Below, piece after piece: positions 4,644 through 54,796 of a DNA stretch of 64,000 nucleotides (the stretch's first letter is position 1; every line of letters begins with the position of its first letter). Source of the stretch: Escherichia coli (GTDB lineage Bacteria; Pseudomonadota; Gammaproteobacteria; Enterobacterales; Enterobacteriaceae); NCBI RefSeq assembly GCF_016903815.1, contig NZ_CP069974.1. One strand, written 5' to 3'. Position numbers and translations under genes: made by a program. The notes beneath the pieces are model-generated. The model was not told where the DNA came from, ran no database searches, and was given only the letters and a program-made list of their open reading frames with translations.

Positions 4644-4809
4644 TACCCTGGCTGACTTTGATACTGCCCAGCGAGAGCGGGAAAATACAGCTCCAGCAGA
4701 TATCCGTGATCGGGTTTACAAAACGCCCCTCACAGGCAGAATCCGCAGACGCCGCAGGGACATGACCGGCGAGAAGGAATAACATCAGCAGCCACAGTCT
4801 TCGCTTCAT
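4644..4809 (-). pseudogene. traU: traU 5' fragment (signal peptide plus about 55 residues)
   Basis: [55 protein letters not shown] matches the TraU N-terminus. The frame then runs into traD-derived DNA (track ORF 4591-4809). Confidence 0.85.
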
Positions 4810-14750: not shown

Positions 14751-15260
14751 ATGAAAAAATGGATGTTAGCCATCTGCCTGATGTTTATAAATGAGATCTG
14801 CCAAGCCACTGATTGCTTTGATCTTGCAGGCCGGGATTACAAAATAGATCCTGATTTACTGAGAGCAATATCATGGCAAGAATCCCGTTACCGGGTTAAT
14901 GCCATCGGTATTAATCCGGTAACGGGATATGGCAGCGGACTGATGCAGGTAGATTCCCAGCATTTTAACGAACTGGCCCGCTACGGAATTAAGCCAGAAC
15001 ATCTGACAACAGATCCCTGCATGAACATTTATACCGGTGCTTATTATCTGGCAATAGCATTTAAAAAATGGGGCGTCACCTGGGAGGCCGTTGGTGCATA
15101 CAATGCCGGATTCAGGAAAACCGAACGCCAGAACCAGAGACGTCTTGCCTACGCATCAGATGTTTACCGGATTTATACCGGGATAAAAAGCAGTAAAGGT
15201 ATCCGGCTTCCGGCCACGAAGAAATCACTTCCGGAAATTAACAGCGTGCAGAACAATTAA
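14751..15260 (+). CDS. ORF169 / gene X lytic transglycosylase (P19 family)
   Basis: 169 aa [23 protein letters not shown]... with the SLT motif ISWQESRY. The track ORF starts at 14658 but that extension crosses the nic site. RBS GAGGTGG lies before 14751. Confidence 0.88.
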
Positions 15261-15507
15261 TCTTACAGACATTGTCAGATACCGGTTATGCCGCAAAAGC
15301 GGCATGGAAGGCCACACACAAAAATATCATATGAGTGACAATACTGACTGGCCGAAGCCCCGCGAAGCGGGAACCCATCTTATATATACCCGGTAACTGC
15401 GCAGCCTCCTGCCAGACCATTTTTCGCAGGCACAATATTTACAGACAACCGGAAAGCCGGTTGATGAAATTGAGGTATATCAGACGACACAGCAATGCCG
15501 AAAAATG

Positions 15508-16804: not shown

Positions 16805-17392
16805 GTTTTCAGCCCCCATCATCTGTTGAGTTTCGGGAGCCGCGGTTTTGACGTTTTGCGGGGACCTGCCTTTTGTTCCCTCCGGTATTCACCATCACCT
16901 TTTTGAGAACCTTCGCCGCAAGGGGCATCACTGCCACGGACGGAAACGACTGTCCGGGGGCAGACCGCAAAAGTTTTTGCCTGCTTCTGGGCAAAAAGTT
17001 TTGCGGGATGTGCATTTCACCCCTGGACTGGCGGAGACGGTTGTGGCTGTCTTTGCCCCCGGCGACAGGGGCTTAAACAGGTGAATGGCACCGGACAGAA
17101 CAACGGGCAGGGACCCGCCGCAACGACGTGAAGCGCGGTTTGCGAAACGGCGTTGCCCCTTACATCCCGGCGGTCTTTTGCCGGGATGCCAGGAGCGCAG
17201 GCCACGGCGCGACAGAGGCGGCGCGACCGGAACGGTCGCTGCAAGCCAGGGGTTTTCACGCATCGGACCGTAGCGACAGCCCGAAACCGCGCCAGCGGGT
17301 TCGGCGGAGACTGGCAGGTGCGCCAGCAGCTGCCTGTCGGAGTCGGGCCTGACGACCGGATGCCGCCAGGCAGCCGGGAGCCGAAGGTGCGC
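16805..17392 (-). promoter_or_regulatory. GC-rich leading-region hairpin repeat, copy A1 (Frpo/ssi-like)
   Basis: About 590 nt, nearly identical to 28590-29177 and diverged from 34284-34848. Outer arms 16840-16870 / 17106-17138 enclose an inner 17-bp hairpin at 16965-17006. Overlapping ORFs on both strands are taken as non-coding. Confidence 0.6.
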
Positions 17393-28589: not shown

Positions 28590-29177
28590 GTTTTCAGCCC
28601 CCATCATCTTTTGAGTTTCGGGAGCCGCGGTTTTGACGTTTTGCGGGGACCTGCCTTTTGTTCCCTCCGGTATTCACCATCACCTTTTTGAGAACCTTCG
28701 CCGCATGGGGCATCACTGCCACGGACGGAAACGACTGTCCGGGGGCAGACCGCAAAAGTTTTTGCCTGCTTCTGGGCAAAAAGTTTTGCGGGATGTGCAT
28801 TTCACCCCTGGACTGGCGGAGACGGTTGTGGCTGTCTTTGCCCCCGGCGACAGGGGCTTAAACAGGTGAATGGCACCGGACAGAACAACGGGCAGGGACC
28901 CGCCGCAACGACGTGAAGCGCGGTTTGCGAAACGGCGTTGCCCCTTACATCCCGGCGGTCTTTTGCCGGGATGCCAGGAGCGCAGGCCACGGCGCGACAG
29001 AGGCGGCGCGACCGGAACGGTCGCTGCAAGCCAGGGGTTTTCACGCATCGGACCGTAGCGACAGCCCGAAACCGCGCCAGCGGGTTCGGCGGAGACTGGC
29101 AGGTGCGCCAGCAGCTGCCTGTCGGAGTCGGGCCTGACGACCGGATGCCGCCAGGCAGCCGGGAGCCGAAGGTGCGC
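28590..29177 (-). promoter_or_regulatory. GC-rich leading-region hairpin repeat, copy A2 (Frpo/ssi-like), upstream of ssb
   Basis: Offset +11785 from A1, with only a couple of substitutions seen by eye. It starts 22 nt from the ssb ATG. Confidence 0.6.
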
Positions 29178-31520
29178 GTGCGACAGGAAGTCGCTTAACG
29201 TATTGTTTTACATTGATAAAACCAGCTATCCCATTAGCTGTAGCCTACCGGGACAGGCGTTGCCGGCAACGGCGGGGTCTGAAGCTCCCGGGACAACGAG
29301 AGCCGGGCGTCAGCCCGGGTAATGCCCCGTGAGGGGCTTTACCTTGCTGCAAGCATCATGCGGCAGGAGAGCAAGGCTGGTCAGAAGGGTTAACACATGT
29401 GAACTGTTGATAAACACCGTTATCGGCAACAGGCCAAAGATGCTGACAGGCCTGAACCAAAAGGTACGGGGTCCGGTTGCTACCTCGCGCACAGGGAGCA
29501 CATGGGCGCAGAGACCCCCGGTGAAGAGACAGAACCCGCCCTGACCCTCTGTATGTTAAGCGGAACCTGGTAAACCCGTATCGCTGCCTCACAGGCAGGT
29601 GAACCGCAAGGAACACTGTTAGCGGTGCGGGCATAGGAGGACGGAAAAAGCGAATGCCCGGCTGTAATAACCGGGATACGGGGCAGGTTCCCCGACGCGA
29701 AAGCGGGCAGACTTCCGTCTGGTCTTTAATTGCATGAAAAGCTGTAAAGCAGTCAAAAGGATATCAGCGAGATGAATACACACATCAGTGTGTCCACGAT
29801 ACCCCACCCGACAGGCTGGCACACCATAAACTGGAAAGCATGCCATGCCCGGGTGCGAAAGCTACAGTTACGGATTGCAAAGGCAACCCGACAGCAACAA
29901 TGGCGGCAGGTCAGAGAACTACAGCGCATCCTCACCCGCTCATTCTCCGGCAAAGCCGTGGCTGTCAGGCGTGTAACTGAAAATACCGGTAAAAGGACAC
30001 CCGGTATTGACGGAAAAATATGGCACACACCGAAGGAGAAATGGGAAGGAATATGCAGCCTGAATCTGTGTGGTTACAGGCCACAGCCACTACGGCGAAT
30101 ACATATCCCAAAATCAAACGGCAAAACGCGACCGCTGGGCATACCCACAATGAGGGACCGGGCCATGCAGGCACTGTGGCTGCTGGCTCTGGAACCCGTA
30201 TCCGAGACCACTGCTGACCATAACAGCTATGGTTTCAGACCAATGCGCAGCACGCATGACGCCATTGAGTCCATTTTTCTGCGGATGAGCCAGAAAGTAT
30301 CGCCCAAATGGATACTGGAGGGCGATATTAAAGGGTGCTTCGATAACATCAGCCATGACTGGCTGCTTTCCCATATTCCGATGGACAGGAGACTGCTTAA
30401 AAAATGGTTGAAAGCAGGTTACATGGAAAGAGGCGTGTTTAACCATACGAACAGCGGGACACCGCAGGGAGGCATCATATCCCCTGTTCTCGCCAACATG
30501 GCTCTGGACGGACTGGAGAAGGAACTGATGCAAACGTTCAGGAAAAGTGGTTATCACAGTGCAAAGCACCAGGTGAATTATGTGAGATATGCTGATGATT
30601 TCATCTGTTCAGGCAGCTCCCGTGAATTGCTGGAAAATGAGGTCAGACCACTGATTGCAGCTTTCATGCGCGAACGAGGGCTGGAACTGTCGGAAGAAAA
30701 AACAGCGATCACACATATAGATAAAGGCTTCGACTTTTTAGGGCAGAACGTCAGGAAGTACAACGGTAAAATGCTGATTAAACCGTCGAAGAAAAACCTG
30801 AAGAACTTCCTCTGTAAAGTCAGAGAAATAATTAAACGCAATCCGACGCTCCCGGCATGGAAACTGATAGGCCAGCTAAACCCGGTGATCCGGGGATGGG
30901 CTACCTATCACCGACACGTCGTGGCGAAAGAAACATTTAATTATGTCGACACCCAAATCTGGCGAGCTATATGGCGATGGTGTGTAAGACGGCATCCCCG
31001 GAAAGGATTGCGGTGGATCGCCGGACGATACTTCTCCTTTGAAGGCAGGCGCTGGATCTTTAAAGCCATAACCCCGGAAGGGAAAATTCTGACACTCTTC
31101 CGGGCAATGGAAACACCGATAAAGCGCCATATAAAAATCAAAGGCGAAGCAACACCATACACCCCCGGAATGGAAATCTACTTTGAACGTCGTCTGGATC
31201 TAATCTGGAAAGGCAAATCAAAGAAGATGAAGACAGTAGTTCAACTCTGGAAGAGGCAGGGGAAACACTGTCCGCAGTGCGGACAACTCATAACCAACCA
31301 GACCGGATGGAATATACATCACCGGATCAGGAAAGTTATGGGCGGCAGTGACGAACTGACCAATCTCGAGTTGTTACATCCGAACTGCCACCGACAGTTA
31401 CACAGCAGGGAAGCCGGTGCTCACCGAAAGCACTTATAAAGGCTTGAGCGGAGTGCGGGGAAACTCGCACGCTCCGTTCTTAGGGGGCGGCGGCGCAGCA
31501 ATGTGCCGCTGCTACCCGAC
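29178..31520 (+). mobile_element. group II intron, type 1, copy 2
   Basis: Same sequence and same insertion point as copy 1 (…GCCGAAGGTGCGC | intron | CCGGCAGACAGG…). Confidence 0.85.
29772..31439 (+). CDS. group II intron-encoded protein (RT-maturase-HNH), copy 2
   Basis: The 555-aa track translation is identical to copy 1. Confidence 0.9.
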   Translation: MNTHISVSTIPHPTGWHTINWKACHARVRKLQLRIAKATRQQQWRQVRELQRILTRSFSGKAVAVRRVTENTGKRTPGIDGKIWHTPKEKWEGICSLNLCGYRPQPLRRIHIPKSNGKTRPLGIPTMRDRAMQALWLLALEPVSETTADHNSYGFRPMRSTHDAIESIFLRMSQKVSPKWILEGDIKGCFDNISHDWLLSHIPMDRRLLKKWLKAGYMERGVFNHTNSGTPQGGIISPVLANMALDGLEKELMQTFRKSGYHSAKHQVNYVRYADDFICSGSSRELLENEVRPLIAAFMRERGLELSEEKTAITHIDKGFDFLGQNVRKYNGKMLIKPSKKNLKNFLCKVREIIKRNPTLPAWKLIGQLNPVIRGWATYHRHVVAKETFNYVDTQIWRAIWRWCVRRHPRKGLRWIAGRYFSFEGRRWIFKAITPEGKILTLFRAMETPIKRHIKIKGEATPYTPGMEIYFERRLDLIWKGKSKKMKTVVQLWKRQGKHCPQCGQLITNQTGWNIHHRIRKVMGGSDELTNLELLHPNCHRQLHSREAGAHRKHL

Positions 31521-33815: not shown

Positions 33816-34046
33816 TCAGTTAAAAGCGCGTTTCAGTTCGAGTGTGCGGAGCACCTGCCCGAAGGCCGTGTTTTTCATGGCGGGGATGTGTACACCACGC
33901 CCCCGGTGAAAACTCCGGGCAATGTGTCGCCCGAAGGCTTTCAGCACGGGGTCAATTTCCGGCGCGGGGATGTCTTCGCGTCTGAAACGGGGATGACGGC
34001 GGGGCTTTACAGCCGCTGCGGAAGGTGAAACAATACTTACTGTCAT
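33816..34046 (-). CDS. hypothetical basic 76-aa protein
   Basis: ORF with RBS AAGAGG 7 nt before the ATG. First gene downstream (minus sense) of repeat A3. Confidence 0.5.
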   Translation of the reverse strand: MTVSIVSPSAAAVKPRRHPRFRREDIPAPEIDPVLKAFGRHIARSFHRGRGVHIPAMKNTAFGQVLRTLELKRAFN

Positions 34047-34283
34047 AATTTAGCCTCTTATGACGTTAATTAATGAAACCGTAAAGACTGTTCGTGCAGT
34101 CTCTGCGGTGTGGATTAAGCAGGTCCCTGACCTGCTTTTTTCATATCTGCGTCTGACGTTCTCCGGTGTTTTCCTCCTTCTGTTCCTGCGTTCTCATTAC
34201 CTGCCAGCCGGATGACTGACAGAACACATAAATGCGTATTGCCGGAGCCTGAAATAAATCCTGATTTTTAAAGAACATCACCC

Positions 34284-34848
34284 GTTGAGTTTCGGGAGCC
34301 GCGGTTTTGACGTTTCGCGGGAACCTGCTGCTGTATACCCTGTGGTATGAACTTCACCCGTTTGAGAACCTTCGCCGCAAGGGGCATCACTGCCACGGCC
34401 TGACGCACCTGTCCTGGGCAGAACGCAAAATTTTTTACCGGGTTTTGGGTAAAAAATTTTGTGGGCTGTTCATTTACCCTGGACAGTCAGTGCGGCAGGT
34501 TGTGGCTGTATCAGCCCCAGGCGACAGGGACTCATACGGGTGTGTGGCACCGGCAGGCAATGAGCAGGGACCCGCCGCAACGACGGAGAGCGCGTGCGCG
34601 AAACGGCGTTGCCCCTTACATCCCGGCGGCCTTTTGCCGGGATGCCGGGAGCGCAGGCCACGGCGCGACAAGGGTGGCGCGACCGGAACGGTCGCTGCAA
34701 GCCCGGGGTTTTCACGCATCGGACCGTAGCGACAGCCCGAAACCGCGCCAGCGGGTTCGGCGGAGACTGGCGGGTGCGCCAGCAGCTGCCTGTCGGAGTC
34801 GGGCCTGACGACCGGATGCCGCCAGGCAGCCGGGAGCCGAAGGTGCGC
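34284..34848 (-). promoter_or_regulatory. GC-rich leading-region hairpin repeat, copy A3 (diverged)
   Basis: Alignable to A1/A2 along its whole length with many substitutions. The inner hairpin 34424-34463 keeps pairing through compensatory changes. The last approx. 75 nt before the intron are identical to A1. Confidence 0.55.
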
Positions 34849-37191
34849 GTGCGACAGGAAGTCGCTTAACGTATTGTTTTACATTGATAAAACCAGCTAT
34901 CCCATTAGCTGTAGCCTACCGGGACAGGCGTTGCCGGCAACGGCGGGGTCTGAAGCTCCCGGGACAACGAGAGCCGGGCGTCAGCCCGGGTAATGCCCCG
35001 TGAGGGGCTTTACCTTGCTGCAAGCATCATGCGGCAGGAGAGCAAGGCTGGTCAGAAGGGTTAACACATGTGAACTGTTGATAAACACCGTTATCGGCAA
35101 CAGGCCAAAGATGCTGACAGGCCTGAACCAAAAGGTACGGGGTCCGGTTGCTACCTCGCGCACAGGGAGCACATGGGCGCAGAGACCCCCGGTGAAGAGA
35201 CAGAACCCGCCCTGACCCTCTGTATGTTAAGCGGAACCTGGTAAACCCGTATCGCTGCCTCACAGGCAGGTGAACCGCAAGGAACACTGTTAGCGGTGCG
35301 GGCATAGGAGGACGGAAAAAGCGAATGCCCGGCTGTAATAACCGGGATACGGGGCAGGTTCCCCGACGCGAAAGCGGGCAGACTTCCGTCTGGTCTTTAA
35401 TTGCATGAAAAGCTGTAAAGCAGTCAAAAGGATATCAGCGAGATGAATACACACATCAGTGTGTCCACGATACCCCACCCGACAGGCTGGCACACCATAA
35501 ACTGGAAAGCATGCCATGCCCGGGTGCGAAAGCTACAGTTACGGATTGCAAAGGCAACCCGACAGCAACAATGGCGGCAGGTCAGAGAACTACAGCGCAT
35601 CCTCACCCGCTCATTCTCCGGCAAAGCCGTGGCTGTCAGGCGTGTAACTGAAAATACCGGTAAAAGGACACCCGGTATTGACGGAAAAATATGGCACACA
35701 CCGAAGGAGAAATGGGAAGGAATATGCAGCCTGAATCTGTGTGGTTACAGGCCACAGCCACTACGGCGAATACATATCCCAAAATCAAACGGCAAAACGC
35801 GACCGCTGGGCATACCCACAATGAGGGACCGGGCCATGCAGGCACTGTGGCTGCTGGCTCTGGAACCCGTATCCGAGACCACTGCTGACCATAACAGCTA
35901 TGGTTTCAGACCAATGCGCAGCACGCATGACGCCATTGAGTCCATTTTTCTGCGGATGAGCCAGAAAGTATCGCCCAAATGGATACTGGAGGGCGATATT
36001 AAAGGGTGCTTCGATAACATCAGCCATGACTGGCTGCTTTCCCATATTCCGATGGACAGGAGACTGCTTAAAAAATGGTTGAAAGCAGGTTACATGGAAA
36101 GAGGCGTGTTTAACCATACGAACAGCGGGACACCGCAGGAAGGCATCATATCCCCTGTTCTCGCCAACATGGCTCTGGACGGACTGGAGAAGGAACTGAT
36201 GCAAACGTTCAGGAAAAGTGGTTATCACAGTGCAAAGCACCAGGTGAATTATGTGAGATATGCTGATGATTTCATCTGTTCAGGCAGCTCCCGTGAATTG
36301 CTGGAAAATGAGGTCAGACCACTGATTGCAGCTTTCATGCGCGAACGAGGGCTGGAACTGTCGGAAGAAAAAACAGCGATCACACATATAGATAAAGGCT
36401 TCGACTTTTTAGGGCAGAACGTCAGGAAGTACAACGGTAAAATGCTGATTAAACCGTCGAAGAAAAACCTGAAGAACTTCCTCTGTAAAGTCAGAGAAAT
36501 AATTAAACGCAATCCGACGCTCCCGGCATGGAAACTGATAGGCCAGCTAAACCCGGTGATCCGGGGATGGGCTACCTATCACCGACACGTCGTGGCGAAA
36601 GAAACATTTAATTATGTCGACACCCAAATCTGGCGAGCTATATGGCGATGGTGTGTAAGACGGCATCCCCGGAAAGGATTGCGGTGGATCGCCGGACGAT
36701 ACTTCTCCTTTGAAGGCAGGCGCTGGATCTTTAAAGCCATAACCCCGGAAGGGAAAATTCTGACACTCTTCCGGGCAATGGAAACACCGATAAAGCGCCA
36801 TATAAAAATCAAAGGCGAAGCAACACCATACACCCCCGGAATGGAAATCTACTTTGAACGTCGTCTGGATCTAATCTGGAAAGGCAAATCAAAGAAGATG
36901 AAGACAGTAGTTCAACTCTGGAAGAGGCAGGGGAAACACTGTCCGCAGTGCGGACAACTCATAACCAACCAGACCGGATGGAATATACATCACCGGATCA
37001 GGAAAGTTATGGGCGGCAGTGACGAACTGACCAATCTCGAGTTGTTACATCCGAACTGCCACCGACAGTTACACAGCAGGGAAGCCGGTGCTCACCGAAA
37101 GCACTTATAAAGGCTTGAGCGGAGTGCGGGGAAACTCGCACGCTCCGTTCTTAGGGGGCGGCGGCGCAGCAATGTGCCGCTGCTACCCGAC
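34849..37191 (+). mobile_element. group II intron, type 1, copy 3
   Basis: Same ends and same insertion point as copies 1 and 2. Confidence 0.85.
35443..37110 (+). CDS. group II intron-encoded protein, copy 3 (G-to-E change in an RT motif)
   Basis: 555 aa, identical to copies 1 and 2 except TPQGGIISP becomes TPQEGIISP (GGA to GAA near 36139). Confidence 0.85.
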   Translation: MNTHISVSTIPHPTGWHTINWKACHARVRKLQLRIAKATRQQQWRQVRELQRILTRSFSGKAVAVRRVTENTGKRTPGIDGKIWHTPKEKWEGICSLNLCGYRPQPLRRIHIPKSNGKTRPLGIPTMRDRAMQALWLLALEPVSETTADHNSYGFRPMRSTHDAIESIFLRMSQKVSPKWILEGDIKGCFDNISHDWLLSHIPMDRRLLKKWLKAGYMERGVFNHTNSGTPQEGIISPVLANMALDGLEKELMQTFRKSGYHSAKHQVNYVRYADDFICSGSSRELLENEVRPLIAAFMRERGLELSEEKTAITHIDKGFDFLGQNVRKYNGKMLIKPSKKNLKNFLCKVREIIKRNPTLPAWKLIGQLNPVIRGWATYHRHVVAKETFNYVDTQIWRAIWRWCVRRHPRKGLRWIAGRYFSFEGRRWIFKAITPEGKILTLFRAMETPIKRHIKIKGEATPYTPGMEIYFERRLDLIWKGKSKKMKTVVQLWKRQGKHCPQCGQLITNQTGWNIHHRIRKVMGGSDELTNLELLHPNCHRQLHSREAGAHRKHL

Positions 37192-37615: not shown

Positions 37616-38034
37616 GACATCGTCTCCCCGTCCAGCGCCTGTAACACAACGTCCATTGCTTCGCGTTCCTCCCTGACGAATGCGTCACCGTCGCCCCCGT
37701 TCTCACTCCCGACGGCATACAGGCGCTTCATTTCACTGCCTGCCAGCGCCATCACTTTTTCCAGCATCACCGCCGGGACTGTCACCTGACGGCTGGCGCG
37801 CTTTTCTTCCATCAGTTCACGAACAACGCCGTGAACAACGCTGACATCCGCACCATATTCAAAGGCATCGTCCAGCCGCTGCATGACGGTTTCCAGCTCA
37901 TCGTCTGTCAGACTCCAGTCCTGGGCTATGTGACGCACATCCCCACGGGTCAGCACTACGGCAAAAACGCATTCACTGTCCGGCACGTCTGTATCCAGCA
38001 CTTCGCGGATAATTTCTTTAACAGTACAGTACAT
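37612..38034 (-). CDS. DUF1380-like protein (140 aa)
   Basis: MYCTVKEIIREVLDTDVPDSECVFAVVLTRGDVRHIAQDW.... Paralogous in layout to 39750-40184 (both contain ...RQVTVPA..L...). Confidence 0.55.
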   Translation of the reverse strand: MYCTVKEIIREVLDTDVPDSECVFAVVLTRGDVRHIAQDWSLTDDELETVMQRLDDAFEYGADVSVVHGVVRELMEEKRASRQVTVPAVMLEKVMALAGSEMKRLYAVGSENGGDGDAFVREEREAMDVVLQALDGETMS

Positions 38035-38080
38035 GTTCTCGTCTCCTTTACAGGGGCGGCATTGCCGCCCCGTCCGTTAA

Positions 38081-38506
38081 TCAGTCCAGAGCCGCGTAAA
38101 TCGCGTTGCATTCGGGGTGAAATTCGATGTGACGCCACAACTGCGCATCGCGCATCCGGTAAAGCTGGGTCAGTCCTGCATCCCCGCTGTCGTGGTACAG
38201 CCACAACTGGCGGTTAATCACAAGGGAGGTCAGGATGATGCCTGCGGCATCAGCACTCACGGTACGGTCAAACCAGTTTGCACCGTTCACCATGTGGAAA
38301 CGGTCGCCATCCGGCATCATGTAACCGCCACCGTCCGGCAGGCGGATGAAGTGCCAGAAGCCTCCCTGATATTCCGGCATCATTTTTTGCGCCAGCGCGT
38401 ACACATACGCCTCGGCATACAGAAAATCGTTGCCAAACAGATACGGCAGAAAGGAGAGACGGTCGCACTCTTCAACATTCAGAGTGACAGGTTTCGCATA
38501 TTGCAT
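38081..38506 (-). CDS. klcA: KlcA/ArdB-family antirestriction protein
   Basis: 141 aa [65 protein letters not shown].... Confidence 0.85.
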
Positions 38507-38548
38507 GATGTTTTCCTCCGTTGTTCACATATTCCGCGACACCGGGCG

Positions 38549-38774
38549 GTGCCGTGCCTCCATAAAAGCCGGGCGAACAGGCGGGGATGCAGGGGCGCAA
38601 GGGAAGCCGCAGCCTGACGCACACGGCTGACGGGAGTTGCAGGGTGAGACCGCGAAATCTGAGCGGGTGAACGACCGGAAAATCACGGCAGACGGGAAGG
38701 AGGGACCGGGTGACCGCAGCGGCGAAGCGTACCCTTGCATCAACGCCAGCCCGGCTAAGATGGAGGCACGGCAC
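38549..38774 (-). promoter_or_regulatory. Frpo-like single-strand promoter hairpin B1 upstream of klcA
   Basis: 15-bp perfect basal stem GTGCCGTGCCTCCAT / ATGGAGGCACGGCAC. The 3' arm carries TTGCAT (38735-38740), N15, then TAAGAT (38756-38761). AAG of the -10 faces AAA on the 5' arm, giving a 3-nt bubble. The base lies about 45 nt from the klcA ATG. Confidence 0.55.
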
Positions 38775-38922
38775 AGCCCGCACACGACGCTGAGGCCACA
38801 TAACTGAAAAACCACAAGGCCATGCCCTGCATGGCCGGGTAAAGCGGAGCCGGCGGCGACTTCCTTTGTGCTCTGTCCGGGGACCGGCAGGAAAAAGGCG
38901 GGGATTTACCCCGCCAGTGTCA

Positions 38923-39750
38923 TCATTTCCGGATTTTTGCCAGGGCATCCGCCATGCTGCGGATTTCGGTCCGGGCTTCCCGGACCACCTCCCGCAGAAC
39001 ACCACGGTCAAACCAGCGGCGGGGCGGTTCATCCGGTATACGCAGCACATCGCAGGCCAGCCCACTGGACAGGATATGCTCAATACACTCACTGACCAGA
39101 TACATTTCCACCGACGAAAAACGTGCTCCCCGGTTCACGATGGCATCGAGCACCACGGGCAGGTTTTCGTCATCTTCATCGAGCCAGCAGGGGTGATCGC
39201 TTTCCTTCACGACCAGGCGAAAGCGGCGCGTCTGGCGGGTCAGCAACGTCTGACCGGTGGTGGTCAGCGCCGCACGGATACGCCGCGCATCTTCTGCCAC
39301 CTGGTAACAGATGCTTCGTACCGCATCGTGCACCGCATCAAGAACAGCCCTGATTTCGTCTTCGGTCAGCCATTCTCCGGCATACGGGAAAGACACCTGC
39401 GTTCCGTCTGCCGGAAGTACCGGCAGCGACTGCCACTGACTGCCGGACAGTACCAGTTCCGCCCCGGTTCCGGTCAGTCTCTGAATGGCGGAGGCCAGGA
39501 GCGGCGGCAGTACGCCGCCGTGACGGTTGATAAGTAACGTCGCCAGCCGGGGCGCATCCAGCCGCACGTAAATGCTGATCCAGCCCGGATAGTTCGGATT
39601 TCGCTGGTCAACATCCGTCTCTTCCGGCCAGCCCTGCGCCAGCAGCAGGTTACGGGCGTGACGACAAATCAGTGCGTTCAGCGTGCTGTTTTCGTTCATG
39701 ATTAAGCGTTCTCCCTGTATCGCCGCCCGCAGGGCAGGCGGCGATAACAT
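38923..39750 (-). CDS. hypothetical protein (275 aa; alternative start 39699 gives 258 aa)
   Basis: The ATG at 39750 overlaps the upstream stop (TGATG). The alternative [11 protein letters not shown] start has RBS GGGAGA. No motif recognised. Confidence 0.55.
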
Positions 39751-40184
39751 CAGTTGTTTTCGTGTGTGTTGTTTTTCAGCAGGGTGCGGGCCTGATTAAC
39801 CACCGCCTGACGGCGGGTAACGCATTCCGGGACGGCGAGGCCGTTATCACGGGCGGCCCACTCACGTTTCCACAGTGCCTGTTCAGCGGTCTGAATCAGG
39901 GACGCCAGCAGTTCAGCAGGGACGGTCACCTGGCGGTTTTCGCTCACGTTGCTGATAATCTCCATCACCGCGGCGGAAGAAATACCGGATTCAGTCCGCT
40001 GGTCTTCCGGGATGTCCTCCATGCGCGCCAGGACGGTCCTGATTTCATGATCGGTCAGAGAAATTTCCATACCGTCAGCCAGTGCCTGAATCTCTTCCGG
40101 GGACCAGATAACCAGCATCAGCGGCGCGTCTCCCGGATACTTTGCTGCCAGCTCCCGGCATAGCGTTTCGCATGTTCCGTACAT
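39750..40184 (-). CDS. DUF1380-like protein (144 aa)
   Basis: [52 protein letters not shown].... Confidence 0.55.
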
Positions 40185-40197
40185 TCTCGTCTCCTTC

Positions 40198-40419
40198 TCA
40201 ATCTTTGAAGCAGGAATCCAGTTCCAGAATTTCGGTATACGCCTCCATAAACAGGCGATTGGCGCGATACAGCGTCTGGCGTGTCAGGCGTTCAACAAGC
40301 ACATCGGAATCAAAGCGACAGCGATGCTCCATATCGTTCAGCCTGGCCCGAAGGTCACACATGGTGTTGGCCACCTCCGCCACGTCGGCGCGAAGTTTTT
40401 CGTGTCCGGCATAGTTCAT
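40198..40419 (-). CDS. hypothetical 73-aa protein
   Basis: ORF immediately after the methyltransferase stop, helical-looking, not recognised. Confidence 0.45.
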   Translation of the reverse strand: MNYAGHEKLRADVAEVANTMCDLRARLNDMEHRCRFDSDVLVERLTRQTLYRANRLFMEAYTEILELDSCFKD

Positions 40420-41103
40420 TTACGCAGCCTCCGGCATAAACCAGTCATCATTCGCGGCCCCCTGCTGCATGGCCCGTTGCACGGCGGCAAGGCGTTGCTG
40501 CCCGGCACGGTGATACTGCTCAAGCAGCTCGATACCGATATACCGGCGTCCGGACTGGAGGGCGGCGACGCAGGTTGAGCCGCTGCCTGCAAACGGGTCC
40601 AGCACAATTGCGTTCGGGTGTGTGAAGCTCTCAATCAGCGGTTGCAGGCTGGTAACGGGCTTTTCCGTCGGGTGATGACGATTGCCAGAATATTTCCAGC
40701 CCAGCACGTCCGGCAGCGGGTTTTGTGGCAGACGTGGACGGCCTTTTGCCAGGATGTAGGCGCATTCGTGGCGATAGCCCACATATGCGGCCTTCGATGT
40801 GTAGTTTTTGGTGAAGACCAGGTGACCAACAACGCTGAATCCCGCATTTTTCCAGGCGGCCATAAAGCGATCGACGCGGTTCCAGCCGTAGAAGCTCACC
40901 ATCAGCGCGTCTTTTTTGAGTACGCGGTACATTTCATTACAGGCCGGTTGCAGCCATTCATCGGTTTTATCGCCGGCGATGGTGCGCCCGGAACGGTCAC
41001 GAAAACCGACGAGATATGGCGGGTCAGTTAATATGAAATCAATGGCGTTATCAGGGATACGCGTCATAACATCGATGCAGTTACCAAGGACAAAACGGGA
41101 CAT
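40420..41103 (-). CDS. orphan DNA methyltransferase (beta-class N6A/N4C, DPPY)
   Basis: 227 aa with motif IV ILTDPPYL early and motif I VLDPFAGSGSTCVAA late. No cognate endonuclease is present. Confidence 0.85.
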   Translation of the reverse strand: MSRFVLGNCIDVMTRIPDNAIDFILTDPPYLVGFRDRSGRTIAGDKTDEWLQPACNEMYRVLKKDALMVSFYGWNRVDRFMAAWKNAGFSVVGHLVFTKNYTSKAAYVGYRHECAYILAKGRPRLPQNPLPDVLGWKYSGNRHHPTEKPVTSLQPLIESFTHPNAIVLDPFAGSGSTCVAALQSGRRYIGIELLEQYHRAGQQRLAAVQRAMQQGAANDDWFMPEAA

Positions 41104-41487
41104 AACAACGCTCCTTCTCTTACAGAGGGCACCGGGAGGGCCCCCCTGTGGTGCCCGTTCCCCGCTGCCTGTGGGCTGTTCACCGCGTCCGGTAACGGGT
41201 CAGGCCGACCGTGGAATATCGCAGCCGTCGTCTTTTTGACGGCGAGAATATGCCGCGAAAGCGGCTTGAAGGGCGTTCATCAGAAAAGGGCGACAGGCTG
41301 GCGTACACTGTCACCGGTGCCAGCCGGGAGCAGTAAAAGCGCCCGTCCCGTGCCCGCCGGACGCGGGACACTGACCACAGGCAGCGTTCCTGCCGCGCCG
41401 CGTCAGCCGGCGCAGTAAAAAGAGGAGCACGGCGACATCCTTTGTCGGAAAAGAAACGGGCGGTTGCCCGCCCGTCTCCGTCATACT

Positions 41488-42414
41488 TCATCCCCCGTAA
41501 TGCGCCACCTTGTCGACTATCCACTCCGGCGCGGTGACTTCCGGCAGCTCATCATCATCTGTCGGGGAAGACCATTCCAGTTCCCCCCACAGCACATCAA
41601 CAAGCTCTCCACGCTCATATCGCTGCCAGCCACAGAAATTGCAGCCCTGTTCGGCGTACCAGTGCTCCAGCGTGCAGCCGAAACGGCGGCTTAATTCTGC
41701 AACAACGTTGCTTTCCGGCTGACACCACGGCGTGTCGAAATCCACTTGAATGAAGTTTTCTCCCTGACGGCTGATATTCACCTCATACCCCACAGGCCAC
41801 TTCACGCCATACTGTTCCGTATACCAGTGATACGCAGAAGGAACACCGTTCAGAACACCACCGTTAAAGCCATTCACTTCAACATCCAGGCGGGTGGGCA
41901 GAACCGTCAGCAGGTCAAACGGCATGGTTTTTTCCGGCAGTACATTGTCACACAGACGGTTCCACCACACCGATACATCCTCGTTACTCCAGAAGCCACA
42001 CCAGTCACCTCTTTTTGCGGTGAAATGCACGGTGATGGTTTCCCTGACCTCATCCGGTAATCCTTCCCAGCGACGCTGGCCAGTACCACTCTGCAGCCAG
42101 AGTTCATGCAGCATCAGGCAGTTTTGCTCATCCAGCAGTACACCGTTCTGCAGGTGTGTCAGCCAGCGGGTGAACGCGATATTCTCCGGCGATACAACAC
42201 CACGTCCGGCATCCGTCAGTCCGGGGCACGGTTCAAACTGCACATCTTCAGTGGTCTGCAGAAGTCCGGCACTTCCGGCCAGAAACAGCTGAATACCTTC
42301 ATTTGTGGCGCGGCGATAAAGCGGTGTGACGGCACCGCTGGCCAGTCGTTTAATCTCAGCAATCTGTGCCGGTTCACCAGAAAAATGCATACGATTCGAG
42401 CACCAGTTTGGCAT
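41488..42414 (-). CDS. DUF1281-like protein (308 aa)
   Basis: Start MPNWCSNRMHFSG with RBS GAGAGGAG. The track ORF adds 15 upstream codons. Confidence 0.55.
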   Translation of the reverse strand: MPNWCSNRMHFSGEPAQIAEIKRLASGAVTPLYRRATNEGIQLFLAGSAGLLQTTEDVQFEPCPGLTDAGRGVVSPENIAFTRWLTHLQNGVLLDEQNCLMLHELWLQSGTGQRRWEGLPDEVRETITVHFTAKRGDWCGFWSNEDVSVWWNRLCDNVLPEKTMPFDLLTVLPTRLDVEVNGFNGGVLNGVPSAYHWYTEQYGVKWPVGYEVNISRQGENFIQVDFDTPWCQPESNVVAELSRRFGCTLEHWYAEQGCNFCGWQRYERGELVDVLWGELEWSSPTDDDELPEVTAPEWIVDKVAHYGG

Positions 42415-42446
42415 GGGAATTCTCCTCTCACATGCGGCCTCCATCA

Positions 42447-42607
42447 GGCCGTGCCGCACCTGTAACCGGGCGACCGCATACGAATGCAGGTGCGGCCCCG
42501 AAGCCGCAGCGCGTGGAGGAGGAACGACGAAACGTGACCGGGTGAGGAGGCCGGCGACAGCGACACACTTGCATCGGATGCAGCCCGGTTAACGTGCCGG
42601 CACGGCC
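42447..42607 (-). promoter_or_regulatory. Frpo-like single-strand promoter hairpin B2 upstream of the DUF1281 gene
   Basis: Arms GGCCGTGCCGCACCTGTAACCGGGC... / ...GCCCGGTTAACGTGCCGGCACGGCC. The 3' arm carries TTGCAT (42569-42574), N15, then TAACGT (42590-42595), with a bulge opposite the -10. Homologous to B1. Confidence 0.5.
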
Positions 42608-42789
42608 TGGGTAACCAGGTATTTTGTCCACATAACCGTGCGCAAAATGTTGTGGATAAGCAGGACACAGCAGCAATCCACAGCAGGCATACAACCGCAC
42701 ACCGAGGTTACTCCGTTCTACAGGTTACGACGACATGTCAATACTTGCCCTTGACAGGCATTGATGGAATCGTAGTCTCACGCTGATAG

Positions 42790-43175
42790 TCTGATCGACA
42801 ATACAAGTGGGACCGTGGTCCCAGACCGATAATCAGACCGACAACACGAGTGGGATCGTGGTCCCAGACTAATAATCAGACCGACGATACGAGTGGGACC
42901 GTGGTCCCAGACTAATAATCAGACCGACGATACGAGTGGGACCGTGGTCCCAGACTAATAATCAGACCGACGATACGAGTGGGACCATGGTCCCAGACTA
43001 ATAATCAGACCGACGATACGAGTGGGACCATGGTCCCAGACTAATAATCAGACCGACGATACGAGTGGGACCGTGGTCCCAGACTAATAATCAGACCGAC
43101 GATACGAGTGGGACCGTGGTCCCAGTCTGATTATCAGACCGACGATACAAGTGGAACAGTGGGCCCAGAGAGAAT
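42790..43175. repeat. sopC: sopC centromere: 43-bp direct repeats, 8 good plus 1 degenerate
   Basis: TGGGACC(G/A)TGGTCCCA cores at 42808, 42851, 42894, 42937, 42980, 43023, 43066 and 43109 (exact 43-nt spacing), plus a degenerate unit at 43152. Confidence 0.92.
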
Positions 43176-43256
43176 ATTCAGGCCAGTTATGCTTTCTGGC
43201 CTGTAACAAAGGACATTAAGTAAAGACAGATAAACGTAGACTAAAACGTGGTCGCA

Positions 43257-44228
43257 TCAGGGTGCTGGCTTTTCAAGTTCCTTAAGAATGGCCTCAATTT
43301 TCTCTATACACTCAGTTGGAACACGAGACCTGTCCAGGTTAAGCACCATTTTATCGCCCTTATACAATACTGTCGCTCCAGGAGCAAACTGATGTCGTGA
43401 GCTTAAACTAGTTCTTGATGCAGATGACGTTTTAAGCACAGAAGTTAAAAGAGTGATAACTTCTTCAGCTTCAAATATCACCCCAGCTTTTTTCTGCTCA
43501 TGAAGGTTAGATGCCTGCTGCTTAAGTAATTCCTCTTTATCTGTAAAGGCTTTTTGAAGTGCATCACCTGACCGGGCAGATAGTTCACCGGGGTGAGAAA
43601 AAAGAGCAACAACTGATTTAGGCAATTTGGCTGTGTTGATACAGCGGGTAATAATCTTACGTGAAATATTTTCCGCATCAGCCAGCGCAGAAATATTTCC
43701 AGCAAATTCATTCTGCAATCGGCTTGCATAACGCTGACCACGTTCATAAGCACTTGTTGGGCGATAATCGTTACCCAATCTGGATAATGCAGCCATCTGC
43801 TCATCATCCAGCTCGCCAACCAGAACACGATAATCACTTTCGGTAAGTGCAGCAGCTTTACGACGGCGACTCCCATCGGCAATTTCTATGACACCAGATA
43901 CTCTTCGACCGAACGCCGGTGTCTGTTGACCAGTCAGTAGAAAAGAAGGGATGAGATCATCCAGTGAGTCCTCAGTAAGCAGCTCCTGGTCACGTTCATT
44001 ACCTGACCATACCCGAGAGGTCTTCTCAACACTATCACCCCGGAGCACTTCAAGAGTAAACTTCACATCCCGACCACATACAGGCAAAGTAATGGCATTA
44101 CCGCGAGCCATTACTCCTACGCGCGCAATTAACGAATCCACCATCGGGGCAGCTGGTGTCGATAACGAAGTATCTCCAACCGGTTGAGTATTGAGCGTAT
44201 GTTTTGGAATAACAGGCGCACGCTTCAT
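43257..44228 (-). CDS. sopB: SopB (ParB-type partition protein)
   Basis: 323 aa [57 protein letters not shown].... Confidence 0.95.
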
Positions 44229-51370: not shown

Positions 51371-54300
51371 TCAGCGATGTTCAAACCGCGCCACTGGAGT
51401 ATCAGTGATTTCCATCTCTATTTCCCAGAGCGTTTTCATCACACCTTCAAGTGGATCGTCGCTGCTGCGGTAGAAGGTATTGAAAAGGGTTCCATCCGGA
51501 TACCTGAACAGCCTGAGTTCACCAAAGGATTCAGCACTGACCATAAGCGAAAACTCCTGTTCGGAATTGAGGACAAGGTAAATAAGACAGTTATTGATCC
51601 TGAAGGGCAGAGAGCGGCTACCCCTGGCCGATACATCAACATGTATGCTAAACGCGTCATGCCTTTCCGGCTGATAGACCAGTTCCCTCAGTTCCTCGCT
51701 GAAGCGGGAACCATAGATCACCAGAATGTAGTTATTCTGATCAGCGGACCGTTGCGCGACTTCCATTAACAGCGTTTCGAGGTTATTGACCTCAATCGTT
51801 AATTTAGCCTGTGACTGCCACAGTACATAATGCAGTCTGCGGAGAATATTTCTGTTCACTTCTGATACCGAAGGGAAATCTCCGTAGTCAGTCTGATTAA
51901 GCTCTCTGGCAACATACTCTTTGGAAACACCAACAGGAATATATATCGCCAGCCAGTTGCGATCACATTCTGAATTTTGAGTAAACGTGAAGTATTTAAG
52001 CAGAACATCTTCAGACAATGCCCCAGGAAGTTCATTTGTAAGACGAGCATCAGTGTTTCTCAGTCGAGCCTGGTCTACTTCAGCAGCAACGATATCTGCC
52101 GTTTTACTACGACTGAATACATCTATGTATTTATCCAGAACATCATTAAAGAACACCACATTCGTTGCATAATCCGCTTCTGAAATGATATAACCTTCAT
52201 AGGGAACTGAAGGGTCTCGTTTCAGTCGTTTAAGAATAGAAATTATTCTGTCTTTACTGGAATAGGAAAACACCCCTCCAGCCAGGGCTTCATTAACACG
52301 CTGTGTAACCTGCTCCGCAGGCCTTGCGAGCTTTATAGCCAGCAAGGCAAACGCCCCGTAGAGACTCCCTAAATCTTCATATTCCCCTGTATACATACGC
52401 CCGGGAATGTAAGGCCTTTCATTATATGAGTTCATAACCTCAATGGTTTCTGATAACCCGCTGTACCAGCTTGTATTCGTATGCAGATTGCAGTGCTCAA
52501 TTCTCAGTATCATGTCAATGATATCGACAGAACGTCTGAATGCAGGCGTCAGCGTGTCATGTGTATCTCTATCTTCATATAATTCAGACATAATGAGATG
52601 ATTCACAAGATCGGCTAAGTCTATATTTTTTTGCGATTCAAAATGAGCAATAAGATACCCTGCCATTAACAACCGCAAATCGGATAAGGCATTTGCAAAC
52701 ATAATGGACAAAGCGGCATCTTTTTTATACTTGCTGCCCCTGAGTAACATATTCCACTGCGGTTCTGTCTCCTTCAGGGACAGATAATCCGGAGTCAGGA
52801 AGAAACTGTGCCAGCGGTACTCTTCCTCCCAGTAACGTGTAAACCGGCTCTGATTAAACCAGAGGCAGAGAACGTCGTGAGCATATCGCACGGAAGAGGC
52901 ATTATCGGCAACCACTGACGGAATAAGAAGCCTGGCGGTATTATGCAGATGATACATCAGGCGGCCAGTAGAATCTTCACTCCCGGGTTTGCCAGTGATC
53001 GTGGTCATACTCCAGCCTTCCCACAGTCCGATATACCCGCGGATAAGGGCCTGGTGAGTCAGCTCCTGGCTGGCCGAGAGGGGGCCCCCCAGTCCCGCTT
53101 TCCACTCGTTTAACACATGCCACACCCTGAAAAGCGAGAGTAAAAACTGTCTGAAATCGGTAAAACACGTGCTCTGTGTTTTTCTGTACACACGCAATGG
53201 AATGAGCATCGATTCACGGAAATATTCGCCTGAATATTCCGTTGATTTTACGGATTCACGAAAAAACTTTCTCAATTCATAATGGAATGAATCGCTGAAA
53301 GTATGGCTAAAACCTGATTCTTTTACTTCATCCAGATAATTTTTATCGACCTCGTAATTGTAACTTCTTTTGATAGAGGTATAGGTATCTGTTAATCGTT
53401 CAATCCCTGTTCTGAAGACGCTAATATTTTTATCGTTAAGCGCATCGTAAGCCTCACCAAAGAAATCAAAAGTAATATCATCCAGATCCCTTTTGTTCTC
53501 AGGGCGCCCTGTTACAATACAACGACGCAATAACCACCGCCACAATCCTGAAACAGGCTTGACATTTCTCGATGACAATAAAGTCAGTTCACCAGAACGA
53601 ACACCAAAGGAGGGCAGAATGATAATTTCCGCATCCTGCCCATCTACCGCCTCTAGCCTTCTCAGTAGGAATAAAAAAGGCCTTATATAAATATCAGTAA
53701 CAACATCACCTTTACTGATATTAGATTTAACATGAAGCATATCGTCTTTCTCAGAAATTGAGTAAGGCAGTATTTTAATATTACCGAGGTAATTTTGACC
53801 TACATGACCCCCCGGGTAACGCAGCCACGCCTGAATATATGCTTTTTGAATGTAGTCATCCACTATCTGAGATAAAAAAAACTTATTCATTAGTCGATCG
53901 CGTTTGCTCTCATCCAGGACATTCAGACTGGAGACGAAGAACCAGATAGACAGAATAATATTGAAAAGCATCCACACAAAAGCTGTTACGGCAAAAGAAG
54001 TATTAAGATATCCGTCACCTATAGATAACGTCATACCGCCCAGCACGACAAATGCAGCCAGTGAAAGACCACTCAGGCCCGCAAACATATATCCGGAATG
54101 AAGTTGATACGCGGACTGAATATGGATCCTTGCTGATTTCTTTTGAAATAAAACACTTATAAGCCCCACAACCAGCGGAAATACAATACCGATTATAGTC
54201 AACTGGCTACCCAGTAAATTAGACATCCAATCTGAAAGCTTGGTAATGCCCTTAAAATGCTGCACAGCGAAAGGTAGCAATACAGGGCGAAAATATTCGA

Positions 54301-54490
54301 CCACGCCAACAGCCCCGAAGGCTGCGGACCATAGAACCAGCATAGCCCGGACGTAATGGGTGGAGCAGGAAACAAGTATTCTCTCCACCGGGTTCCAGCG
54401 AAGTTTTTTGTAATCCCGGTTCGACTTCAGGCTCCGTCGGAGTTCAGCTCTCACCTGCCATGAGACACTTTTCAGAAGTTTTCCAAACAT
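51371..54490 (-). CDS. large membrane-anchored protein of unknown function (1039 aa)
   Basis: About five hydrophobic helices in the first approx. 190 residues, followed by an approx. 850-aa soluble region with no motif I recognise. AT-rich codon usage. Hairpin GTGACCCCTGATGGGGTCGC follows the stop. Confidence 0.7.
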   Translation of the reverse strand: MFGKLLKSVSWQVRAELRRSLKSNRDYKKLRWNPVERILVSCSTHYVRAMLVLWSAAFGAVGVVEYFRPVLLPFAVQHFKGITKLSDWMSNLLGSQLTIIGIVFPLVVGLISVLFQKKSARIHIQSAYQLHSGYMFAGLSGLSLAAFVVLGGMTLSIGDGYLNTSFAVTAFVWMLFNIILSIWFFVSSLNVLDESKRDRLMNKFFLSQIVDDYIQKAYIQAWLRYPGGHVGQNYLGNIKILPYSISEKDDMLHVKSNISKGDVVTDIYIRPFLFLLRRLEAVDGQDAEIIILPSFGVRSGELTLLSSRNVKPVSGLWRWLLRRCIVTGRPENKRDLDDITFDFFGEAYDALNDKNISVFRTGIERLTDTYTSIKRSYNYEVDKNYLDEVKESGFSHTFSDSFHYELRKFFRESVKSTEYSGEYFRESMLIPLRVYRKTQSTCFTDFRQFLLSLFRVWHVLNEWKAGLGGPLSASQELTHQALIRGYIGLWEGWSMTTITGKPGSEDSTGRLMYHLHNTARLLIPSVVADNASSVRYAHDVLCLWFNQSRFTRYWEEEYRWHSFFLTPDYLSLKETEPQWNMLLRGSKYKKDAALSIMFANALSDLRLLMAGYLIAHFESQKNIDLADLVNHLIMSELYEDRDTHDTLTPAFRRSVDIIDMILRIEHCNLHTNTSWYSGLSETIEVMNSYNERPYIPGRMYTGEYEDLGSLYGAFALLAIKLARPAEQVTQRVNEALAGGVFSYSSKDRIISILKRLKRDPSVPYEGYIISEADYATNVVFFNDVLDKYIDVFSRSKTADIVAAEVDQARLRNTDARLTNELPGALSEDVLLKYFTFTQNSECDRNWLAIYIPVGVSKEYVARELNQTDYGDFPSVSEVNRNILRRLHYVLWQSQAKLTIEVNNLETLLMEVAQRSADQNNYILVIYGSRFSEELRELVYQPERHDAFSIHVDVSARGSRSLPFRINNCLIYLVLNSEQEFSLMVSAESFGELRLFRYPDGTLFNTFYRSSDDPLEGVMKTLWEIEMEITDTPVARFEHR

Positions 54491-54600
54491 AGATATCCTG
54501 CGTATTACATAAGAAATTTTATGAATAATAAGCGGTAGGAACCTTTTTTTCTCTGGAAAATGTCACCCGATACCCTTCATACAGGCTTTGTCATCCTAAA

Positions 54601-54652
54601 ATCCGGTTTAACCTTTTTTCGGATCTCCGATAAAAAAGAAAGAAATAGAGAT
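54601..54652 (+). repeat. hairpin-plus-polypurine junction repeat, copy 3
   Basis: ATCCG-N14-CGGAT (54601-54624) overlaps the palindrome TTTTTTCGGATCTCCGATAAAAAA, then the A/G-rich run AAAAAGAAAGAAATAGAG. Confidence 0.6.
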
Positions 54653-54796
54653 ATGCATAAACATATGCCTGGCATCTACATATGCTACCGCTATACATAT
54701 GCCACACATCTGCCTATACTAAACATATGCACACACCCGGTGCTTTGAATATTCCGGATATGTTTCACATATCCATATGCTCGGGAGAGAAAGAAC

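Follow-up and report, generated by a model that had tools for sequence, protein, structure and literature searches.

Locus and transferred strand

The 64,000-nucleotide (nt) stretch of Escherichia coli contig NZ_CP069974.1 (assembly GCF_016903815.1) analyzed here, hereafter the window, is an F-like (IncF) conjugative plasmid. We consider in it a 165-nt hairpin, B2 (42445–42609, + strand), that lies upstream of a gene of the DUF1281 family and is probably a promoter active in single-stranded DNA. The DUF1281 gene (41488–42414, − strand) is an open reading frame (ORF) of 308 amino acids (aa) with Pfam matches to DUF1281 (5.8e-49) and DUF1281_C, annotated in identical plasmids. It is the first gene downstream of B2, with the ATG at 42414, 31 nt from the hairpin base, and the ribosome-binding site GAGGAG read at 42422–42427 (−). 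To the right of B2 are the sopC repeats (approximately 42780–43150), then sopB and sopA; B2 is the last element of the leading region before this partition locus. To the left of the DUF1281 gene is an M.EcoGIX-type DNA methylase gene (40420–41103, −) and, beyond it leftward on the − strand, three small genes, the antirestriction gene ardB/klcA (38081–38506, −) and, further on, ssb and psiB. Two other structured elements are discussed below: a longer hairpin, B1 (38543–38778, +), upstream of ardB/klcA, and a third GC-rich interval (41104–41487, +) upstream of the methylase gene.

All leading-region genes of the window are on the − strand. A nic-like site of the origin of transfer (oriT), GCGTAGTGTGTGGTGCTTT, is found on the + strand (14649–14667), adjoined by ssiE (15255–15443); it has two mismatches to the nic-region sequence of F, with 0.03 matches expected by chance. 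From these two observations, the + strand is taken to be the transferred (T) strand, i.e., both the entering strand and the template of the leading genes. B2 is on the + strand and its gene on the − strand, so that the transferred strand is the template of the gene, as for the class 2/ssp2 single-strand promoters of the leading region.

The segment 41000–42780 is 100% identical to many plasmids of E. coli, Salmonella, and Klebsiella, and 38000–43300 is colinear with plasmid F at 93.5% identity. The promoter scan of 42300–42800 reveals no conventional duplex promoter, and the terminator scan of the same segment only one terminator-like structure, at the chance level: a small 6-bp stem GCCTGG/CCAGGT followed by ATTTTGT (42605–42620, +), which overlaps the 3′ end of the B2 base helix. 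The Rfam scan of 30–46 kb yields no match with E ≤ 1 at 38.5, 41.1–41.5, or 42.4–42.6 kb; the only matches, to a group II intron and AS-pc01, are away from the three hairpins.

Fold and parts of B2

The DNA minimum-free-energy fold of 42440–42615 (+) has −50.3 kcal/mol, compared to −36.4 ± 3.2 kcal/mol on average for shuffled sequences (z = −4.3), and none of 200 shuffles is as stable. The inverted-repeat finder places the arms at 42445–42471 and 42583–42609, and the element is further supported by the covariance model and covariation described below. Hence, a long stable stem-loop is formed by the single strand where it had been noted by an earlier model reading of the letters alone (the sequence-only reading).

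The base helix consists of 12 perfect pairs between CAGGCCGTGCCG (42445–42456) and CGGCACGGCCTG (42598–42609); the 10-bp helix of the sequence-only reading lies inside it, the length being understated by two pairs. The 5′ half would be the template strand at the predicted start, and the 3′ half contains A42602, opposite the predicted start. In alignment A2 (see below), 7 of the 12 pairs of this helix show compensatory changes. The 3′ arm carries the noted combination TTGCAT-N15-TAACGT, read directly at 42569–42595: the −35-like hexamer TTGCAT (42569–42574), the 15-nt spacer (42575–42589), and the −10-like hexamer TAACGT (42590–42595), all facing the DUF1281 gene when rebuilt in the stem. The spacer holds most of helix 2, formed by GCCCGGTTA (42583–42591) with TAACCGGGC (42463–42471), which in A2 is 100% paired, with two compensatory pairs. 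A small internal loop interrupts the −10 hexamer: its first T and A are paired, A42592 and C42593 are unpaired, the following GTG is paired, and C42597 is bulged, in line with the expected mismatch or bulge opposite the −10.

Two motifs are found in the apical part: AAGCCGCA (42501–42508), near-invariant in A2, with the second A replaced by G in two copies, and GA(A/C)CGGGTGA (42536–42545), nearly invariant among the copies upstream of DUF1281 genes. The CCG of the former pairs with the CGG of the latter, and these pairs do not vary in A2 at all. The apical motifs are located 25–60 nt upstream of the −35 hexamer, and neither contacts of sigma-70 nor other known contacts of the polymerase explain them.

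A loose match TTGNNN-N15/16-TANNNT on one 40-nt arm has an estimated chance of approximately 1–2%. The strength of the case for B2 lies in the comparative data.

Relationship of B2 to B1 and class 2/ssp2 promoters

B1 is a published single-strand promoter, so the hairpin family is already known. Both class 2 sites of plasmid pESBL, located upstream of klcA and ardA, share 96% identity with it, and candidate Frpo′4 of Samuel et al. (2024) shares 83%. For the klcA and ardA hairpins, Wen et al. (2025, Nucleic Acids Research gkaf1299, PMC12672017) report transcription starts mapped by 5′ rapid amplification of cDNA ends in transconjugants, and zygotic induction. In F, the B1 element is ssp2; according to the preprint of Fraikin et al. 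(10.64898/2026.01.09.698686), deletion of ssp2 reduces transfer into restricting hosts, and ssp2 stalls complementary-strand synthesis until UvrD resolves the hairpin. The Shaw preprint names the B1-type element Frpo3.

The seed alignment of seven sequences (B1, B2, two hairpins from Erwinia amylovora, and the Samuel candidates Frpo′4, Frpo*1, and Frpo*3) spans the whole hairpin in one frame. Common to the seeds are the base helix, the helix (A/G)CCGGGC/GCCCGG(C/T)T, the motifs AAGCCGCA and GA(A/C)CGGGTGA, CTTG, and TA...T; copies of the B1 type have an additional apical insertion of approximately 65 nt. TTGCAT and TAAGAT/TAACGT fall into shared alignment columns, so that the hexamer positions of B1 and B2 are indeed equivalent. 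The sequence blocks said to be shared by B1 and B2 are present as well, although their transcription was slightly wrong; the corrected blocks are ATGCAGG.GCG....G.AAGCCGCAGC and CTTGCATC followed, after 5 nt, by CAGCCCGG.TAA.

The profile hidden Markov model (HMM) of the seeds detects B2 at 2.8e-30. The covariance model, built from A2, i.e., from DUF1281-upstream copies only, with B1 left out, scores B2 at 145 bits on the + strand vs. 34 bits on the − strand, and recovers B1 at 84 bits (E ~3e-17). The other matches in the window are the reverse-strand mirrors of B2 and B1 and a chance-level one of 10 bits at 8224–8272 (E 0.39). The assignment of B2 to the family of B1 is upheld by both the seed alignment and this B1-free model. 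BLAST of B2 against B1 yields just 74% identity across 73 nt. As judged from the sequence, B2 is a diverged short-form relative of class 2/ssp2, with the homology visible by a profile or covariance model.

Conservation across Enterobacterales

The alignment of three DUF1281 proteins yielded 27 loci from species-representative genomes. In every case detected by the seed profile HMM, the family member ends approximately 30 nt before the DUF1281 start codon and resides on the template strand. Such copies are seen in Escherichia, Klebsiella, Erwinia, Pantoea, Serratia, Pseudescherichia, Scandinavium, Buttiauxella, Pluralibacter, and Dryocola, the protein identity to the DUF1281 of the window decreasing to 33–37%. 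No family element is found upstream of the DUF1281 homologs of Proteus, Providencia, and Shewanella; in Proteus and Shewanella, only short terminator-like hairpins are predicted there. Hence, the hairpin family is not universal for the DUF1281 gene.

Alignment A2 comprises 21 DUF1281-upstream sequences with a mean column identity of 67%; CTTG is invariant, as are positions 1, 2, and 6 of the −10 hexamer (T, A, and T). RNAalifold predicts 33 pairs for A2, 16 of them with compensatory changes. When the pairing partner is slid by 1–3 columns as a control, the fraction of paired cells falls from 92.3 to 32–46%, the number of compensatory pairs from 16 to 2–6, and the covariation score from 0.33 to at most 0.065; none of 500 shuffles matches A2 in pairing, compensatory count, or score. 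Examples of compensation are CCGTG/CACGG replaced by CCGTA/TACGG, and CCGGGC/GCCCGG replaced by ACGTGC/GCACGG in copies from Pseudomonas and Serratia. Positions 4–6 of the −35 hexamer vary, covarying with the 5′ arm (visibly at positions 4 and 5), while TTG is fixed. The sequence-only reading was to be considered refuted if homologs failed to keep the pairing or the hexamers; here both are kept, and, as had been claimed, structure and hexamers are conserved more than sequence. The fold of B2, its family membership, the orientation of strand and gene, the covariation, and the hexamer conservation are directly supported.

Across the 27 sources, the covariance model yields 64 strong matches, with as many as six in one locus. 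Each of the 64 is on the template strand of its neighboring genes; only three matches have the opposite orientation, each a weak mirror image of one of these sites. All 62 distinct copies have TTG, 56 have A at position 2 of the −10 hexamer, and 56 have T at position 6, the remaining hexamer positions being free. Of the 21 DUF1281-upstream copies, 15 have a 15-nt spacer and 6 a 16-nt one. All 52 profile matches are followed by an ORF start 14–83 nt after the hairpin, mostly with a Shine–Dalgarno sequence.

When 39 distinct copies are folded one by one, the mean pairing probability is 0.69–0.93 for the −35 hexamer and 0.95, 0.07, 0.14, 0.37, 0.73, and 0.86 for the consecutive positions of the −10 hexamer. 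Sigma-70 normally flips out the A at −10 position 2. In the family as modeled, the first T of the −10 is predicted to close the helix, with the A that sigma-70 flips out already unpaired.

The 14-kb loci of Pseudomonas lundensis, Serratia bockelmannii, and S. quinivorans contain four to six family copies each, all of them on a single strand. A clean TTGNNN-N15/16-TANNNT match is missing from several of these copies; hence, the family may include variants of other spacing or function.

The fold energy does not tell the strands of B2 apart, as the reverse strand is also stable (z = −4.8, vs. −4.3 on the + strand); we therefore used the counts of G·T and A·C pairs as a strand test. There are 16 G·T vs. 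4 A·C pairs in A2 and 62 vs. 26 in alignment A5, an excess that favors folding of the + strand rather than of the mRNA-sense strand. The equal foldability of the reverse strand, together with the position of B2 between sopC and the next gene, would suit a role at the RNA level, as a terminator or attenuator of sopAB read-through or as a structured 5′ leader, or else the binding of a regulator to the duplex form, as an operator or cruciform. However, the G·T pairs of the + strand would be C·A mismatches in the sense RNA, no U-tract or T-run follows the hairpin on the − strand, as an intrinsic terminator would have, B2 matches no Rfam family, and members of the hairpin family occur upstream of many unrelated genes, in several copies per leading region and far from sop loci. 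Functions of this kind are very improbable for B2.

Proposed mechanism and alternatives

We interpret B2 as a single-strand promoter of the DUF1281 gene, active in the transferred strand and related, as a short form, to class 2/ssp2 (probability of roughly 0.78). The mechanism would follow the Frpo logic (Masai and Arai, 1997, as given in later summaries), in which the 3′ arm of the folded strand is non-template and the 5′ arm is template. For B2 itself, we infer polymerase binding, promoter activity, the start site, the timing, and the switch-off in duplex DNA. In conjugation, the + strand would enter the recipient alone, and 42445–42609 would fold back, with the 3′ arm (TTGCAT-N15-TAACGT) serving as the non-template and the 5′ arm as the template strand. 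The host sigma-70 RNA polymerase would bind the duplex −35 of the hairpin, and the −10, pre-placed in a small bubble, would be favored for opening.

The usual distance from the −10 hexamer to +1 is 7 nt. With this distance, T42452 would be the template base for +1; transcription would start near the position opposite it and leave the hairpin base leftward into single-stranded DNA. The predicted RNA begins with 5′-ACGGCCUGAUGGAGG and would have a leader of approximately 38 nt with GAGGAG, followed by the DUF1281 gene; it may run on into the methylase operon. Once the complementary strand is made, the hairpin would be lost, and the hexamers in the duplex would point right, away from DUF1281 and towards sopC; due to this loss and orientation, expression of DUF1281 is proposed to stop.

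Several observations weigh against this interpretation, in addition to the inability of fold energy to discriminate between the strands. The −10 hexamer TAACGT agrees with the consensus at only three of six positions, and the 15-nt spacer is short for sigma-70. B2 also departs slightly from most of the family in that −10 position 2 is paired (P = 0.77), with the loop one base further on. In plasmid F, the DUF1281 gene is split by a frameshift, while the hairpin is still 98% identical; hence, B2 could serve another purpose. Finally, pESBL has seven long T-strand hairpins (three of class 1, two of class 2, a copy of B2, and a copy of the third interval), as opposed to the six induced operons or promoters of Wen et al. 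(2025), namely, three of class 1, two of class 2, and one of class 3 “5′ of M.EcoGIX”. Thus, one of the two, B2 or the third interval, was not scored as a promoter, and induction of DUF1281 may not be strong.

The poor −10 hexamer with its paired position 2 could alternatively mean that B2 in IncF/IncI1 plasmids is a decaying, weak, or inactive copy, whose fold is kept by descent and whose promoter is unused. Consistent with that, B2 lacks the apical GGAGCGGACTGAATGTCCCGCG hairpin found in most other short-form copies, and the published numbers of operons with single-strand promoters, six in pESBL and four in F (Fraikin et al., 10.64898/2026.01.09.698686), may leave B2 out. A clearly degraded copy does exist on an IncI-gamma/K plasmid of E. 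coli ETEC1706. Against decay, B2 is found at an identity of at least 95% in approximately 4,300 plasmid records, in most of which the DUF1281 frame is intact; its TTG, TA...T, spacing, and all helices are intact, and no alternative promoter of DUF1281 is visible. We regard decay as improbable.

The degraded ETEC1706 copy (locus L035, 1170–1420) has lost the ribosome-binding site and a part of the base helix by deletions; on this non-mobilizable plasmid, no DUF1281 gene is annotated, so that the copy exemplifies decay of B2 once its context is lost. Being such a remnant, this 85%-identical copy is uninformative about variation within IncF/IncI plasmids.

The DUF1281 region of F (locus L005, 6811–7781; NC_002483, 52810–53780) contains two ORFs (183 and 145 aa) that overlap, apparently owing to a frameshift; the B2 hairpin upstream is intact. 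Retention of the hairpin at 98% identity ahead of this frameshifted gene would also be expected if B2, as a structure of the entering strand, affected not the transcription of DUF1281 but complementary-strand synthesis, either by priming it (as an ssi) or by blocking the polymerase. Both activities have precedents: in vitro, DNA synthesis is primed by Frpo transcripts, and in vivo, ssp2 (B1) brings complementary-strand synthesis to a stall. The near-invariant apical motifs AAGCCGCA and GAACGGGTGA, for which sigma-70 contacts give no explanation, also speak for such a role. However, F loci between B2 and ssp2 are reported to become duplex without delay, so there is no strong block upstream of ssp2, which argues against one at B2, and B2 has no match to the ssiD or ssiE sequences. 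Moreover, TTG and TAnnnT, the fixed distance to the ribosome-binding site, and the strict gene orientation are needs of a promoter and not of a priming site. Overall, a role in strand synthesis in place of transcription is unlikely, if slightly less so than decay; it is compatible with the promoter interpretation, since the primer RNA would arise from the same promoter.

Relation to published single-strand promoters

B2 resembles the class 2/ssp2 promoters in strand, gene-proximal position, and the long GC-rich hairpin, and in detail by the −35 TTGCAT, the 15-nt spacer, the helix GCCCGG(C/T)TA, the base helix ..GCCGTG../..CACGGC.., and the apical motifs. It differs from them in being approximately 70 nt shorter, without the apical insertion of B1, in the −10 (TAACGT vs. 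TAAGAT), in the smaller bubble at the −10, and in the downstream gene.

Class 3/ssp3 is similar to B2 in that B2 heads the DUF1281–methylase gene run in pESBL and F, if the ORF inside the third interval is accepted, and in that B2 has recognizable boxes without BLAST-level similarity to classes 1 and 2, as Wen et al. (2025) describe class 3. However, it is the third interval, not B2, that immediately precedes the methylase gene. In pESBL, both a B2 copy (locus L004, 771–945) and a third-interval copy (L004, 1899–2282) are located ahead of the methylase gene; in the numbering of NC_018659, the counterpart of window position 42452 is at 53,434–53,440, and the third interval corresponds to 54,398–54,781. 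Whether B2 is the published class 3/ssp3 is evenly balanced; otherwise, class 3 would be the third interval, and B2 either an unreported extra promoter or silent.

Class 1 elements (Frpo/ssiD, ColIb-P9 ssi1–3; Masai and Arai, 1997; Bates, 1999; Couturier, 2023) are likewise T-strand hairpins that rebuild −35 and −10 boxes with mismatches near the −10, and they also provide for early, transient expression of leading genes. They differ from B2 by another fold, A/T-rich blocks, and the lack of sequence homology: nhmmer and blastn searches of the window with class 1 queries give matches only at 16.8, 28.6, and 34.3 kb, and none at B2, and no homology to ssiD or ssiE is found at B2.

Frpo*1 and Frpo*3 (Samuel et al., 2024, Supplementary Table 2) are, like B2, short-form family members, alignable over the whole hairpin including the hexamers and apical motifs; they differ in origin (insect-gut metagenome) and are low-certainty candidates of that study, with no experiments. 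B2 falls under the BLAST threshold of Samuel et al. (2024), as its best E-value is 1e-5 even against the window alone; judging by the sequence comparison, BLAST-based censuses would miss B2. All these assignments leave B2 within a known kind of element; new here are the homology of B2 to class 2 and its positional conservation, with covariation, across Enterobacterales.

Which plasmid genes are expressed within the first minutes of conjugative entry, ahead of the restriction and SOS responses of the host, is determined by single-strand promoters, which thus bear directly on the spread of resistance plasmids. A DUF1281 gene with its own ssp2-related promoter would extend this program of early expression to the border of the partition locus, and would mark DUF1281 as a candidate establishment or anti-defense gene. 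The profile and covariance models also find such promoters where BLAST fails (the 64 copies above), and the unpaired −10 position 2 and the unexplained apical motif provide handles on how the polymerase reads folded DNA.

The third interval and exchange of hairpins

The region 41100–41490 folds into a multibranched hairpin of −106.5 kcal/mol (z = −6.9). The long-range complementarity noted earlier in this interval is real, with slightly different limits: the main arms are 41163–41192 and 41357–41386 (30 nt, 83%). F, pESBL, and close relatives have a homolog before the methylase gene, and four Citrobacter loci have this type of hairpin ahead of both the DUF1281 and the methylase genes. A few pairs of the base stem show compensatory changes. 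The third interval belongs to a separate conserved hairpin family, distinct from that of B1/B2.

No −35/−10 pair can be placed on the main 3′ arm, in agreement with the sequence-only reading, which had found no convincing hexamers here. Two candidates were rejected. The conserved CTTGAAG and GTAAAAT/GTACACT are located at a junction and in a side hairpin, off the main 3′ arm, and hence could not act in the Frpo manner. TAAAAA near 41417, considered as a −10, pairs with the ribosome-binding site of the methylase gene and is not kept in Citrobacter.

The annotated 103-aa ORF (41180–41491, −), taken from the annotation of related plasmids, lies wholly within the GC-rich DNA of this hairpin element. 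Its product matches no Pfam family and does not resemble those of the small ORFs found at this position in Citrobacter or Erwinia; the ORF is therefore probably an annotation artifact.

In Erwinia, Pantoea, and one Klebsiella plasmid, class 2-like short forms occupy both the DUF1281 and the methylase slots, while IncF/IncI1 plasmids have one hairpin type at each slot, class 2-like and third-interval. This interchange of two hairpin types at the same gene positions (seen, e.g., at 2723–2959 and 4325–4677 of locus L006 and at 2794–2970 and 4314–4501 of locus L007) argues that both are promoter slots.

A broader joint reading may be offered tentatively, being itself rather doubtful. B2 would represent an old lineage of short-form single-strand promoters missed by sequence searches, with a fixed architecture of a duplex −35, a 15–16-nt spacer broken by an internal loop, a pre-flipped −10 position 2, and a near-invariant apical clamp AAGCCGCA/GAACGGGTGA. 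A host factor, e.g., SSB, the polymerase alpha subunit, or a helicase, might dock at this clamp, with AAGCCGCA or GACCGGGTGA as the candidate factor site. The hairpins would be cassettes exchangeable between the DUF1281 and methylase slots, and B2 would be the seventh single-strand promoter in pESBL and the fifth in F.

Other observations in the leading region

The class 1 Frpo/ssiD element with approximately 300 nt of flank is present in three copies, 16805–17441, 28590–29226, and 34264–34897. The first two are 99–100% identical and 11,785 nt apart, suggesting a recent duplication of a leading-region segment. Two apparent group II intron copies (29222–31520 and 34893–37191, +) each begin exactly at the end of a class 1 Frpo repeat copy (29226 and 34897). 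In one of them, Rfam identifies domains D1–D4 at 34893–35042 and D5/6 at 37115–37191, with the ltrA ORF at 35443–37110; the second D5/6 is at 31444–31520. The introns are opposite in orientation to the leading genes, as if targeting hairpin-adjacent sequence. AS-pc01 (antisense to pHK01_035) is matched at 34041–34140 (+), immediately beyond the class 1 Frpo copy that precedes ssb, with 98.9 bits, above the Rfam gathering score.

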